A stretch of 64,000 bases of DNA from Nitrospinales bacterium (GCA_046757665.1 JBHHYO010000003.1:24146-88145), one strand, 5' to 3'; numbered from the stretch's first letter, positions 3,641 to 48,531 are shown. The notes: a model not told the origin generated them from the letters alone. Numbers and translations: made by a program.

Positions 3641-3675
3641 AATCGGTTCCTTCCTTTTTGGACCTTTCAATATGC

Positions 3676-3707
3676 AGTATAGACTCTGTATTTAAGTACA
3701 GGGTAAA
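3676..3707 (-). promoter_or_regulatory. Second MerR-type promoter/operator (20-bp spacer), upstream of the beta-barrel gene
   Basis: Minus strand reads TTTACC-CTGTACTTAAATACAGAGTC-TATACT; carries the same CTGTA-N6-TACAG dyad as the site at 1329-1359. Confidence 0.8.
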
Positions 3708-13257: not shown

Positions 13258-13535
13258 CAGGAGACGGGAGGCTGGAGACGGTCAATGGTCACGCTTCGAC
13301 GGGCTCAGCGTGACGGGGAGTCGGAAAAAACGGAGATCGGAGACCGGGGAAAAACGGGAACCGCAAAGGCGCCAAGGGCGCAAAGAAAAAATCCCCCCAG
13401 CCCCCTTCCAGAAGGAGGAGTAAATTTCAAATGGGATTTTTCTGTGTCCATCTGTGCGCCCTTTTGTAAGTCAGGGACAGGTATCGTGGTTAGATTTTTT
13501 GCTTTTCTCCGTGCTCTCGGTGGCTCCGTGGTGAT
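13258..13535. repeat. Cluster of degenerate short palindromic and iterated repeats
   Basis: GTCACGCTTCGACGGGCTCAGCGTGAC (13288-13314), ACCGCAAAGGCGCCAAGGGCGCAAAG (13360-13385), a CCCCCTT..AAGGAGG hairpin, TCTGTGTCCATCTGTG and CTCCGTGCTCTCGGTGGCTCCGTGGTG. Confidence 0.65.
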
Positions 13536-44923: not shown

Positions 44924-45113
44924 GGTTCTCACGTTAAAAGGCGATCAACTCCCATCAGGCCAGAGGCCGGGGTCTCCGGCGAACGACGCCGGGGAGGGTT
45001 GAACGGTTGGCGCCTAATTGTAGTATAATCCGTCTGCCGGTTCCCACAAAAAACAAACCTGCATCCATCCGTTTTTGCGGATACGCCGCGACGGCAAGCT
45101 TGAAAGGAGGTTC

Positions 45114-46847
45114 ATGAACGCCGCTCCACGCCGGACTGCCAAAACCGCCGAACCCCTTTCGGTGCGGGTTGCCCTGGCGCAGGTCAACGCCGTTGTCGGA
45201 GATTTCAAATACAACGCCGACAAGGTGAAAGCCTGCCTGCGCGAGGCCCGGCGACGGCAAGCCGACGTGATTTTGTTTCCGGAAATGGTCCTGACCGGGT
45301 ACCCGCCAGAGGATTTACTGCTGAAACGGGATTTCGTATCGCGGAGTGCGCGGGCTCTGGAGCGCGTGGTTCCCTTCTGCAAGGGGTTGACGGCGCTGAT
45401 CGGTTGCGTGGAACCCGCGGGCAAGGCGCTCTTCAACGCCGCCGCCCTGGTGGCCGACGGCAGGCTCATCGGCCGCTACCGTAAAATGCGCCTGCCCAAT
45501 TACGGCGTGTTCGACGAAAAACGTTATTTCAAGGAAGGCGCCACGCCCTGCCGGTTCGTCCAGAACGGCGTCACCTTCGGCGTCACCATTTGCGAGGACA
45601 TCTGGGAGGAGCCCGAACAACGCCTGGACGTTGACGTGCTTCTGAACATTTCCTCGTCGCCGTTCCATACCGGCAAGGGACGCCTGCGCGAACGCCTGAT
45701 CAAGAAGCGGGCCAGGCAGTTTGACGCCTATGTGGTTTACGCCAACCTCGTCGGCGGGCAAGACGAACTGGTGTTTGACGGACGCAGTCTGGTGGCTGAC
45801 CCCGACGGCAAACTGATCGCCCGCGGCAAATCGTTCGAGGAAGAGTTGATACTGCTGGACCTGCCGGTGCCGCGTCCGAAACTCGCCCGCGCCGGCGGCA
45901 GGAAACGCAAACCCCTGCCCGGCGTCAAAACCTGGCGGATCGCCCGCCGCCCACCGGCCGCCCAAAAATCCCTGCCGCCCAGGCCCATGCGCGCCCCCGG
46001 CGGCATCGAGGAAGTGTTCAAGGCCCTGGTCCTGGGCACGCGGGATTACATCGTCAAAAACGGGTTCAAGACCGTGGTGATCGGCTTGAGCGGCGGCATC
46101 GACTCCGCCCTCACGGCGGCGGTCGCCGTCGAGGCCCTCGGCGCGTCAAACATCGTCGGCATCCTCATGCCGTCGCCTTACTCGTCGGCGGGCAGTATCG
46201 ACGACTCCCGGCAACTGGCGGCCAACCTGAACATCCGCGCCTTCACCCTGCCCATCAAAGCCGCCATGCGCGCTTACGAAAAAACCCTGTCGCCGCTGTT
46301 CCGCGGCACGCCGCCCGGCATCGCCGAGGAAAACCTGCAAGCCCGGATACGCGGCAACCTGCTCATGGCCCTGTCCAACAAAATGGGCTGGCTGGTGCTG
46401 ACCACCGGCAACAAAAGCGAAATCAGCGTCGGCTATTGCACCCTGTACGGCGACATGGCGGGCGGCTTCGCCGTCATCAAGGACGTCCCCAAAACCCTGG
46501 TGTACGAACTCGCCGAATATTTCAACCGGCAAAAAGGCACGGACGTCATCCCCCGCAACATCATCGAGAAAGAACCCTCGGCGGAACTGCGTCCGAATCA
46601 AAAAGACACCGACTCCCTGCCGGAGTACCCGGTTCTGGATGCCGTCCTGCGGCGCTATGTGGAAGAAGATAAAGGCGTGGAGGAACTGAAAAAACTCGGC
46701 CCGCCCAAAAAGGAAATCGAACGCATCGCCCGCCTCGTCGACCGCAACGAATACAAACGCCGGCAGGCCCCGCCCGGCGTGCGCATCACCCCCAAGGCCT
46801 TCGGCAAGGACCGCCGCCTGCCCATCACCAACCATTTCAAAGGCTAG
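45114..46847 (+). CDS. nadE: Glutamine-dependent NAD+ synthetase
   Basis: Nitrilase domain (FPE...GYPPEDL, ICEDIW) plus GLSGGIDS, ENLQAR, GNKSE, PSAELRPNQ; RBS GGAGG. Confidence 0.96.
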   Translation: MNAAPRRTAKTAEPLSVRVALAQVNAVVGDFKYNADKVKACLREARRRQADVILFPEMVLTGYPPEDLLLKRDFVSRSARALERVVPFCKGLTALIGCVEPAGKALFNAAALVADGRLIGRYRKMRLPNYGVFDEKRYFKEGATPCRFVQNGVTFGVTICEDIWEEPEQRLDVDVLLNISSSPFHTGKGRLRERLIKKRARQFDAYVVYANLVGGQDELVFDGRSLVADPDGKLIARGKSFEEELILLDLPVPRPKLARAGGRKRKPLPGVKTWRIARRPPAAQKSLPPRPMRAPGGIEEVFKALVLGTRDYIVKNGFKTVVIGLSGGIDSALTAAVAVEALGASNIVGILMPSPYSSAGSIDDSRQLAANLNIRAFTLPIKAAMRAYEKTLSPLFRGTPPGIAEENLQARIRGNLLMALSNKMGWLVLTTGNKSEISVGYCTLYGDMAGGFAVIKDVPKTLVYELAEYFNRQKGTDVIPRNIIEKEPSAELRPNQKDTDSLPEYPVLDAVLRRYVEEDKGVEELKKLGPPKKEIERIARLVDRNEYKRRQAPPGVRITPKAFGKDRRLPITNHFKG

Positions 46848-46859
46848 AAATTCCCAACC

Positions 46860-46895
46860 GTTCAATCAACTTGAACTATGTTCAGCAGAATGAAC
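46860..46895 (+). repeat. Left inverted repeat of the TA cassette
   Basis: GTTCAATCAACTTGAACTATGTTCAG (46860-46885) followed by CAGAATGAAC. Confidence 0.85.
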
Positions 46896-46900
46896 AGTTG

Positions 46901-47224
46901 CTACGTCCCGGATGTTTGCAGTTTCTCCGGTTTCAGCCGGTAGCCCATGGCGTGCATGATGGCATTGATACTTTCCAGTCTTGGATTGCCCTCTTCGGAA
47001 AGCGCTTTTTGAATGCCGTTGCGGGTGATTCCGGTTTCTCTCGAAATTTCGGAAATGCCCTTCACGCGGCAGATAACGCGGAGGGAGGACAGCAGGGCCG
47101 CGGTGTTCCCATCTTCCGCAAATTCGTCAAAAATCTCTTTCAGGTATTCGTCTATTTCATCCGGATGTTCACGGAAATAGTCCTCCTCGAATTCCCGGAA
47201 CTTTCTGTATTTTCTTTTAGCCAT
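46901..47224 (-). CDS. Addiction-module antidote protein (HI1420 family, HTH)
   Basis: LRVICRVKGISEISRETGITRNGIQKALSEEGNPRLESINAIMHAMGYRL. Confidence 0.88.
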   Translation of the reverse strand: MAKRKYRKFREFEEDYFREHPDEIDEYLKEIFDEFAEDGNTAALLSSLRVICRVKGISEISRETGITRNGIQKALSEEGNPRLESINAIMHAMGYRLKPEKLQTSGT

Positions 47225-47555
47225 GCTTTCGATGCTCCTTCCAGTATTTCCTCGCCGTCTTAATATCCCTGGCCTGACTGCCTTTGTCGCCGCCACATAA
47301 CAGCACAATTATATTCCCGGCCTCCTCGCCAAAATAAACCCGATAGCCGGGGCCAAAAAAAATCCGCAATTCCATCACAGCTTCGCCGACAGGCTGACAA
47401 TCGCCATAAAGTCCGTGTTCCAGTTTTCCAATACGTCTTAAAATAACCCGGCGGCCTTTTCGGTCGCGCAAGCCTTTCATCCAATCGGTAAATGGCTCGT
47501 TCCCGCTTTCATCCTGATAAATGGTAACGGTTTTCGGCTTTACAGCTCCGGCCAT
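47217..47555 (-). CDS. RelE/ParE-superfamily addiction-module killer protein (HI1419 family)
   Basis: PFTDWMKGLRD...GDCQPVGEAVMELRIFFGPGYRVYF...LLCGGDKGSQARDI. Confidence 0.9.
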   Translation of the reverse strand: MAGAVKPKTVTIYQDESGNEPFTDWMKGLRDRKGRRVILRRIGKLEHGLYGDCQPVGEAVMELRIFFGPGYRVYFGEEAGNIIVLLCGGDKGSQARDIKTARKYWKEHRKHG

Positions 47556-47572
47556 CCCCGATCCTTTCTATA

Positions 47573-47602
47573 AAGATACTATTGCATACTATATTATGCA
47601 AT
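47573..47602 (-). promoter_or_regulatory. TA promoter with a palindromic operator
   Basis: Minus strand TTGCAT-17 bp-TATCTT; palindrome ATTGCATA-N6-TATGCAAT (47581-47602). Confidence 0.7.
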
Positions 47603-47613
47603 TAATTTCAAGG

Positions 47614-47649
47614 GTTCAATATTCTGAACATAGTTCAAATTGATTGAAC
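47614..47649 (-). repeat. Right inverted repeat of the TA cassette
   Basis: Reverse complement of 47624-47649 is GTTCAATCAATTTGAACTATGTTCAG, 25/26 identical to 46860-46885. Confidence 0.85.
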
Positions 47650-47865
47650 AGACGGCGCAAACGAGGCAACCTGGACATAAATCCTCTTAAAGAACCACCA
47701 CGAGAAAATAAATTGATCCCCCTGAGGAATCCCGAAGACAGAATTCAAAGGTCCCTTTGACCTTCCCCGTTTCAAGCCGATGTGATAAAATTCAATCCGA
47801 ATCCAGCAACATTCACTCATCGGGAAAACCGGGTCAAACTCCCACGGGGACAAGCGGAGGGTGTC

Positions 47866-48531
47866 ATGAAAAAGAAAATCGGTGTGGTGCTTTCGGGATG
47901 CGGCGTTTATGACGGCGCGGAGATTCATGAATCGGTGCTGACCCTGCTGGCCATCGACCGGGCGGGAGCGGAAGCGGTCTGCATGGCTCCCGACGTCGAT
48001 CAGATGCACGTGGTCAACCACCTGACCGGCGAGGAAGCGGCGGGGGAAAAACGCAACGTGCTGGTCGAGTCGGCGCGCATCGCCCGCGGCCAGGTTAAGG
48101 ACATCAGCGCGGTGAAAGCCGACGATATTGACGCGCTGATCTTCCCCGGCGGGTTCGGCGCCGCCAAGAACTTGTCCGATTTCGCCGTCAAGGGAGAACA
48201 TTGTAGCGTCCATCCGGAAGTCGTCCGCCTCATCCGCGAGTTCGCCGCCAAGGAAAAACCGCAAGCCGCCTGTTGCATCGCCCCGGCGATGTACGCCAAG
48301 GTCTTCGAGGGACAGGGCGTCCATCCCACCCTCACCGTCGGCAACGACAAGGAAGTCAGCGGAAAAATCGAAACCATGGGCGGCAAGCACCAGGAATGCG
48401 GCGCCGAGGACATGGTGTTCGACGAGGCAAACAAAATCGTCTCGACGCCGGCCTACATGACGGGCCAGAGCATCGGTCAAGTCGCCGCCGGCATCGAAAA
48501 AACCGTCAACAAGCTGGTGAGCCTGCTGTAA
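47866..48531 (+). CDS. elbB: Glyoxalase ElbB (DJ-1/PfpI/ES1 family)
   Basis: LSGCGVYDGAEIHE, RNVLVESARIARG, PGGFGAAKNL, CIAP, STPAYM. Confidence 0.95.
   Translation: MKKKIGVVLSGCGVYDGAEIHESVLTLLAIDRAGAEAVCMAPDVDQMHVVNHLTGEEAAGEKRNVLVESARIARGQVKDISAVKADDIDALIFPGGFGAAKNLSDFAVKGEHCSVHPEVVRLIREFAAKEKPQAACCIAPAMYAKVFEGQGVHPTLTVGNDKEVSGKIETMGGKHQECGAEDMVFDEANKIVSTPAYMTGQSIGQVAAGIEKTVNKLVSLL

Follow-up and report, generated by a model that had tools for sequence, protein, structure and literature searches.

The window analyzed here is a 64,000-nt stretch of one strand from a Nitrospinales bacterium (GCA_046757665.1 JBHHYO010000003.1:24146-88145), whose genome is a 160-contig metagenome assembly of 2.97 Mb with 97.6% completeness and a GC content of 54.8%. 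Between the genes nadE and elbB, the window contains a 790-bp segment (46860-47649) in which a toxin-antitoxin (TA) operon is enclosed by a pair of inverted repeats, which we call the arms. The evidence supports this segment as a discrete, foreign and self-contained TA insertion, placed in a spacer that holds other cargo in related genomes. The inverted repeat is real and far beyond what chance would give. We tentatively read the arms as terminal sites left over from the vehicle that originally brought the TA operon to this site, now orphaned, without a partner or relatives, and give this reading somewhat less than an even chance. The coordinates of the features are collected in Table 1.

The genes of the segment are an intact type II TA system of the HI1419/HI1420 family, as the initial annotation had proposed. 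The toxin matches TIGR02683 with 116.3 bits (cut-off 62.85) and the antitoxin matches TIGR02684 with 65.2 bits (cut-off 53.7), so that both curated cut-offs are passed, while a Pfam search of the toxin returned no family. The toxin gene is first in the operon and overlaps the start of the antitoxin gene by 11 nt. A TTGC..A/T..GCAA dyad is present at the place equivalent to the palindrome ATTGCATACTATATTATGCAAT in 8 of 8 aligned TA-homologue loci, from several phyla, and we infer that this palindrome is the operator of the antitoxin. The candidate TA promoter, on the minus strand, consists of TTGAAC (47614-47619), a 17-nt spacer and TAATAT (47591-47596). It agrees with the consensus at 8 of 12 positions, which is one below the threshold of the promoter scan, and for this reason the scan lists no TA promoter. 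The innermost half-site of the right arm (47614-47619) is, from its sequence, likely the −35 element of this putative promoter, and TTGAAG and TTCAAA are found at the same place in two other Nitrospinota genomes with the TA genes, G001 and G023. Since arm-less homologues also have this inner half-site as a −35, part of the right arm would be native TA promoter. The full-length gene matches, the toxin-first order, the overlap and the conserved dyad operator at the −10 are all as in other HI1419/HI1420-type systems. The genes themselves are thus ordinary, whereas the flanking arms are found on this copy only.

The TA operon is recognized as an insertion because both filled and unfilled versions of the nadE-elbB site exist in relatives. 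In 14 of 40 relatives, a single contig carries matches to the 3′ end of nadE and the 5′ end of elbB no more than 5 kb apart, and these are 14 of the 15 genomes of one family (f2); in f3, in f4 and in the family to which the window belongs, nadE and elbB do not lie next to each other. Seven of the 14 f2 loci have a nadE-elbB spacer of 86-243 bp and are unfilled. The remaining seven (in the L051-L064 set, equivalent to window positions 46848-47865) hold 1-3.4 kb of cargo that differs from locus to locus (Table 1), and none of these seven filled hotspots has a comparable inverted repeat around its cargo. As far as such a comparison of genomes goes, the spacer behaves as a hotspot in which small accessory cassettes replace one another in Nitrospinota. 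The minimal mobile elements (MMEs) of Neisseria are similar in kind, and their definition in PMC3082526 does not require terminal repeats. As in an MME-type hotspot, two conserved genes have different cassettes between them, depending on the genome, among the 14 f2 relatives. Unlike the MME case, however, the comparison here spans another family and not strains of one species, and exchange by homologous recombination is presumed.

The composition and the left edge of the segment agree with this assignment. The GC content is 0.43-0.52 within the 790-bp segment vs 0.59-0.68 in nadE and elbB; the arms do enclose HI1419/HI1420-type genes and a promoter/operator in DNA that is richer in AT than its flanks. 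The C-terminus of nadE is intact in comparison with relatives, and its open reading frame (ORF) stops at 46847, which leaves 12 nt up to the left arm, as first described. Metagenome contigs carrying nadE with 95% (run X3) and 88% (run X4) identity stop matching at 46857 and 46855, respectively, with dissimilar sequence beyond. Because these contigs stop matching 3-5 nt before the arm, the left arm belongs to the variable DNA and not to the backbone. The runs that contain the stretch are labelled hydrothermal vent metagenomes, with no RNA run among those listed.

The unit that recurs in other genomes is the TA core, approximately 46896-47620, which comprises promoter, operator, toxin and antitoxin. 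Judging from alignments, this unit excludes the two 36-nt arms. TA-core DNA is present in 6 of 119 other Nitrospinota genomes, from 5 genera, with identities of 86%, 80% and 74-68%. In G001, the TA core is 86% identical in nucleotide sequence vs 69-74% for nadE/elbB, and this greater closeness of the core points to lateral transfer. The stretch shared with G001 is 46916-47621 and that shared with G023 is 46916-47537, while a contig of run X4, with a TA 94% identical, aligns over 46896-47611 only. The DNA in common with the TA homologues starts at 46896-46916, with the left arm outside, and the borders between core and arms fall at 46895/46896 and at about 47613/47614. The arms are absent from 14 of 14 TA-homologue loci, where the local alignment of either 36-nt block is at the level of shuffled sequence. 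Furthermore, none of the seven TA-homologue loci with scannable flanks, out of nine in the species-genome set, has flanking inverted repeats of its own longer than 13 nt, seven homologues have no GTTCA array upstream of the TA, and no TA relatives were found among viral contigs. By these comparisons, the TA core is mobile and appears to travel without the arms in at least six other Nitrospinota genomes and one metagenome contig.

In several of these genomes the TA unit has repeat-bounded or otherwise distinctive surroundings. In G001, the gene next to the TA is a 149-aa resolvase-domain ORF without a DNA-binding domain, in a plasmid-like stretch (L002 2323-2772), and near it only two GTTCA pentamers are present in 3.7 kb. 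When aligned by eye, the right arm seemed to share some homology with the region upstream in G001; MAFFT aligned the sequences otherwise, and we make no claim for it. In G023, the TA unit is flanked by two perfect 29-nt direct repeats, 1069 nt apart, which resemble the 3′ end of a tRNA (L003 1331-1359, 2400-2428). ARAGORN gave no intact tRNA at this locus, which has the look of a minimal islet that is bounded by att sites and lacks an integrase. In G013 (L084 9800-15300) and G022 (L085 11000-14300, 18100-19400), the TA unit is surrounded by arrayed direct repeats of 45-130 nt with multiple hairpins, among them a 91-nt unit present four times. Its neighbors there are small unknown ORFs and a ParDE pair, a 1355-aa RHS-repeat gene lies upstream, and a recombinase-less cassette array is possible.

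The 26-mer GTTCAATCAACTTGAACTATGTTCAG at 46860-46885 on the plus strand is matched by its reverse complement at 47624-47649, on the minus strand, with one mismatch (25/26). When the window was shuffled 100 times with dinucleotides preserved, no 26-mer match at ≤3 mismatches arose. The repeat search lengthens the pair to 41 nt with 85% identity (46860-46900 / 47609-47649). In a genome-wide scan for inverted pairs with arms of ≥22 nt, ≥85% identity and a spacing of 150-4000 nt, the arm pair is 36 nt with 32/36 identical positions, the third longest of the 21 pairs in the 2.97-Mb genome. Each arm has the structure GTTCA-N7-TGAAC-N3-GTTCA-N6-TGAAC, a 36-nt quasi-palindrome with a TAT center. Thus, the internally palindromic repeats and their inward extension to two tandem dyads per end, both noted in the initial annotation, are seen here as a 36-nt block of four half-sites. 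When the arms are compared with each other, the half-sites differ at 0 of 20 positions and the spacers at 4 of 16 (Fisher one-sided 0.031, hand-computed). The four-half-site structure is non-random, and the arms look like multi-site protein-binding ends. As single-stranded DNA they fold weakly (−7.3 to −8.5 kcal/mol, z −2.5 to −3.3). A role as terminators was rejected, given this weak folding and a terminator scan that lists none within the arms, and so was a known RNA (0 Rfam matches at E up to 1).

Further copies of the arms were sought in several collections. Among the 119 other Nitrospinota genomes, the pattern GTTCAA-N5-TTGAAC-N3-GTTCA gave 0 matches, and the 26-mer at ≤3 mismatches also gave 0, not even a single arm. 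The exact four-half-site pattern gave 0 matches in 185,579 species genomes (596 Gb). In JGI metagenomes, the outer 25-mer pattern gave six single AT-rich matches, which share 23-28 of 41 positions, are not paired, and appear unrelated and chance-like. A relaxed 17-base pattern gave 30 loci in IMG/VR, mostly of one phage lineage with an unrelated iteron-like GTTCAAAAANTTGAAC array. A 47-nt arm query gave a best E of 0.2 in plasmids, which is not significant, and nothing in phages. Diverged relatives of the arms would be missed, because the collection scans used exact patterns. As an observation in its own right, the phage lineage (about 20 related contigs) has four GTTCAAAAANTTGAAC dyads at an ORF junction (L021 1999-2090); these have the half-site and spacing of the outer arm dyad and are otherwise unrelated to the arms.

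Within the genome of the window, the motif does not behave as a dispersed signal. GTTCA-N5-8-TGAAC occurs at 11 sites, four of which are in the arms, and GAAC-N3-GTTC occurs at 29 sites vs about 45 expected by chance (our own estimate), with no promoter pattern. An abundant repeat or regulator site was therefore rejected: only the two arms match the 26-mer at ≤6 mismatches, and the 11 and 29 dyad sites form no regulon. LexA/Cheo-type boxes have a 4-nt spacing. A box of this type was rejected for the arms, whose central dyad has a spacing of 3 nt and defines no regulon.

We compared the arms with the ends of known mobile systems. TA cassettes are common integron cargo, and the arm ends resemble those of integron cassettes in that they begin with GTT and finish with AAC. 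However, the arm hexamers GTTCAA and TTGAAC depart from the R′/R″ consensus of attC at the fourth position, and a single 57-141-nt attC at one end was not seen by eye against this consensus. No integron integrase (TIGR02249) scored over the cut-off in the window's own genome (G000) or in G001, G013, G022 and G023. With respect to REP/REPIN elements, the arms have two copies only, PF01797 has 0 matches, and the REP-like families of this genome differ in sequence; IS200-type hairpin ends were rejected along with these, there being no Y1 transposase in the assembly. No match of the arms to known IS ends was found in the plasmid search, which is a weak test.

The dif modules of Acinetobacter are the closest parallel in layout. 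As described by Mindlin et al. (2019; PMC6449649), pdif modules include a 768-bp "add dif" TA module and have 28-bp 11-6-11 XerC/XerD ends in inverse orientation. The TA module is likewise about 0.8 kb, with only a TA pair and its own promoter between inverse short sites and with no duplication or recombinase gene. The dif modules differ in that their ends are XerC/XerD sites like the host dif and recur in many contexts, whereas the ends here are dif-unlike and occur once. The assembly encodes XerD on contig C11 (TIGR02225, 379.7 bits, over the cut-off) and a XerC-like protein on contig C29 (TIGR02224, 328.9 bits, just under the cut-off of 335), and it has a canonical-looking dif candidate, AGTTCCCATAAGATATATTATGTAAAAT, on the minus strand of contig C35 (25921-25948) with 8/11 dyad symmetry. 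The best agreement of the arms with this dif candidate is 15/28 and 14/28, values that were reached by 236 and 1283 of 2000 shuffles, respectively. The 11-6-11 frames within the arms have a dyad symmetry of ≤6/11 vs 8/11 in the dif candidate. Thus, the earlier view that the ends match neither attC nor dif is borne out. With respect to recurrence, the TA core here recurs without the ends, and the ends are found nowhere else. MIC elements, as described in PMC3913671, have inverted repeats, no transposase and usually a target duplication, and are mobilized by an IS that shares their ends. MIC231-type and MITE-like elements are similar in having passenger genes between inverted repeats with no transposase nearby, and the case here differs in having no target duplication and no other copy or autonomous IS with the same ends.

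The proposed history of the segment is as follows. A horizontally travelling TA operon of the HI1419/HI1420 (RelE/ParE) type would have been inserted once into the nadE-elbB spacer and would now be fixed there. The vehicle may have been a non-autonomous cassette with inverted repeats or two recombinase sites, and a protein would once have acted on the arms. The arms would now be fossil, since neither a partner enzyme in this genome nor a relative in public data was found, and any later spread at the hotspot would be via homologous recombination in the flanking genes.

Several observations weigh against this history. Most DDE-type inverted-repeat elements leave a target-site duplication; the outer edges (CCAACC/GTTCAA and TTGAAC/AGACGG) have no direct repeat of 2-9 nt. 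On the right side, similarity to relatives returns only near 47753-47781, so that about 100-130 nt past the right arm are unmatched and the right arm is not clearly an edge of the inserted DNA. The empty nadE-elbB alleles that had been anticipated are present as the seven short-spacer loci, but only in distant relatives: they belong to a different family (f2), with 70-80% nucleotide identity, and not to a sister strain. In the own genome, the 26-mer at ≤6 mismatches finds the two arms only, and a second copy was found nowhere that we searched, which leaves no positive evidence of arm-driven movement. No recombinase or transposase family was matched on the contig of the window (C3), and the assembly has 0 PF00239 serine-recombinase and 0 PF01797 Y1-transposase matches; its enzymes are XerC, XerD, one P4-type integrase and one DDE fragment. 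Finally, the inner right half-site as a native −35 fits an inverted duplication or regulation equally well.

Taken with these results, the initial proposal of a mobile TA cassette stands as to a discrete foreign insertion with filled and unfilled sites, but its ends as movers are unsupported. The same is true of a new cassette class defined by these ends, since no end pair was found around other cargo or an autonomous element in any collection. The absence of a transposase, a recombinase and a target-site duplication, reported at the outset, held for contig C3 and for the edges. No inversion, excision or circle joints at the arms were seen in the contigs of four runs, in which minority forms cannot appear because they are assembled. 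A contig of run X1 has a loose end at 47667, and there is extra depth in the bin 47546-47679 in runs X1 and X4. Because the search for a second end pair was empty, while no abundant repeat or regulon site was found, unfilled sites exist and no known IS end was matched in what is a weak search, the evidence does not decide either way on whether the arms confer mobility.

The main rival explanation is that the arms are functionless and derive from the target or from a duplication. The TA core would either have split a palindrome or have had a 36-41-nt stretch upstream of its promoter copied in inverted orientation behind the antitoxin; we consider this rather unlikely. It would account for blocks that abut the TA core almost exactly at the borders given above, for the lack of a target duplication and for arms that occur at this locus only. 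The left arm has ATGAAC as a mirror copy of the hexamer that serves as the putative native −35 in the right arm, as expected if it was copied from there. In addition, G001 has a different inverted copy behind its antitoxin, a 27-nt repeat with 85% identity between the toxin-end/antitoxin-start junction and the DNA just past the antitoxin stop (L069 3309-3335 / 3659-3685), which shows that inverted micro-duplications occur in this TA family. However, the exactness of the half-sites in the face of diverged spacers suggests constraint after the copies separated, the intact palindrome is present in no relative, with not one arm among the 119 Nitrospinota genomes at ≤3 mismatches, and the arm hairpins are weak. 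The keeping of half-sites while spacers drift would also be consistent with operator-type arrays, in which the right arm represses or activates the TA promoter and the left arm loops or insulates it from convergent nadE transcription. Each arm is built of dyads in tandem that share a conserved half-site of 5 nt, and the putative −35 falls within the right arm. The putative operator of the family, however, is the different TTGC..A/T..GCAA dyad of the homologue loci, the seven homologues have no GTTCA arrays upstream, and the motif defines no regulon. We know of no precedent in TA autoregulation for an operator copy downstream of the operon, and a regulatory role of the arms is improbable.

Alternatively, the 790-bp segment might be invertible, with a recombinase from elsewhere flipping the TA operon and altering read-through into nadE or elbB. 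The geometry fits: the inverted repeats measure 26-36 nt, the spacers of their internal dyads are 6-7 nt long, there is no duplication, and the segment bears a promoter. Invertible segments are often unique to one locus. The genome, however, has no invertase-type gene and 0 resolvase-domain matches, and its three tyrosine recombinases are XerD, the XerC-like protein and the P4-type integrase. Furthermore, the outer-dyad spacers of the two arms are one base apart (ATCAACT / ATCAATT), a mismatch that would disfavor strand exchange by a tyrosine recombinase, and we hold inversion to be doubtful at best. Equally doubtful is a live member of a new non-autonomous cassette class, moved in trans by an enzyme that recognizes iterated GTTCA/TGAAC sites. 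Its layout is like that of passenger cassettes such as the dif modules with a 768-bp TA module (PMC6449649) and the MIC elements (PMC3913671). The diversity of vent Nitrospinota is thinly sampled, and diverged members could escape exact-pattern scans. Nevertheless, no search gave another member, the TA core moves without the arms, and there is neither a duplication nor an enzyme. With only slightly better prospects, though still quite improbable, the arms may be active sites of a recombinase or transposase that has not been described, acts in trans and recognizes four GTTCA half-sites at each end. By far the least probable is a dif module that depends on Xer. The genome encodes XerC and XerD, the ends are inverse and the size is close to that of the 768-bp module of Mindlin et al., but the agreement of the arms with the own dif candidate is at shuffle level and their dyad symmetry is below that of the candidate.

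What the segment means depends on the arms. If they are only fossil, as we tentatively prefer, the segment is a commonplace addiction or defence module within a hotspot, and its main value is to mark nadE-elbB as a place where TA and defence cassettes land repeatedly throughout one Nitrospinota family. If they are working sites, this would be the first sighted TA-carrying non-autonomous cassette or whole-operon inversion switch in Nitrospinota, with an architecture that parallels the Acinetobacter dif modules independently of Xer/dif. Functional arms would mean that an uncultured marine phylum has come to the dif-module layout with another type of site, and would indicate a recombination system that is still undescribed. 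With ends that occur only once, this example is not generalizable at present. More reproducible are the hotspot and the repeat-bounded positions that the TA unit occupies elsewhere in Nitrospinota.

Table 1. Features of the nadE-elbB region in the window (window coordinates) and cargo of the equivalent spacer in f2 genomes.
Feature	Position	Strand	Evidence or remark
nadE, glutamine-dependent NAD synthetase, left hotspot flank	45075-46847	+	PF02540 1.7e-73, PF00795 4.8e-29
Left arm	36-nt four-half-site block 46860-46895, weaker similarity to right arm up to 46900	.	abuts antitoxin stop codon 46901-46903
Antitoxin gene, HI1420-type, HTH	46901-47227	-	TIGR02684 4.6e-18, PF21716 1.3e-15, full-length profile matches
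Toxin gene, HI1419-type, RelE/ParE family	47217-47555	-	TIGR02683 upstrm_HI1419 E 6.2e-34, profile positions 5-94 of 95
Putative operator palindrome ATTGCATACTATATTATGCAAT	47581-47602	.	repeat search; overlaps putative −10 TAATAT (minus strand, 47591-47596)
Right arm	47609-47649, 36-nt block 47614-47649	.	inverted relative to left arm
Terminator-like hairpin + T-run	47715-47731	-	66 nt outside right arm
Extended −10-like box of elbB, TGTGATAAAAT	47781-47791	+	conserved in short-spacer relatives
elbB, DJ-1/PfpI-type glyoxalase, right hotspot flank	47866-48531	+	NF008747 2.4e-99
G006 cargo	nadE-elbB spacer		Gp49/HTH_37 TA pair, split Mrr, GIY-YIG
G018 cargo	nadE-elbB spacer		Gp49/HTH_37 TA pair + ion channel
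G021 cargo	nadE-elbB spacer		DUF4411
G037 cargo	nadE-elbB spacer		HTH+Peptidase_M78
G009 cargo	nadE-elbB spacer		1017-aa Metallophos/STAND protein (STAND NTPase)
G025 cargo	nadE-elbB spacer		UDG-like gene
G033 cargo	nadE-elbB spacer		unknowns

Two features lie between the right arm and elbB. The terminator-like hairpin probably belongs to the non-backbone DNA. The −10-like box of elbB is found again in the spacers of L054 and L052, and the close variants TGTGATAGAAT and TATGATAAGCT are present in L053 and L055.

The genome contains other repeats that are distinct from the arms. A REP-like hairpin family, CACNCTTCGACAAGCTCAGNGTG, has about 45 sites in the own genome at ≤4 mismatches, including three in the window near 13290, 14857 and 51796. 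Its stem bases covary (CACGC/GCGTG, CACCC/GGGTG, CATGC/GCATG and CACAC/GTGTG). On contig C41, copies of CACNCTTCGACAAGCTCAGNGTG flank a DUF2283/DUF4258-like pair and a PIN gene, in an assembly without a Y1 (RAYT-type) transposase. A second repeat family, which begins with CGCAATGACAATCAA and ends with GAAGCAATCCAGAA, forms inverted pairs in the window at 28405-28472/30887-30964 and 4478-4506/6569-6597; these bracket segments of 2.1-2.5 kb, and one arm pair is perfect (25/25). On contig C6 (38897-39324, L095), a PDDEXK_3 (GxxExxY-type) nuclease gene, split in two ORFs, lies between mirror-image arrays of the heptamer CGCAAAG. A 619-bp segment on contig C9 (20895-21513, L097) has 34-nt terminal inverted repeats (33/34), and a weak DUF772 transposase fragment is all that it holds; this IS with an internal deletion provides an example of a true IS relic in this genome.

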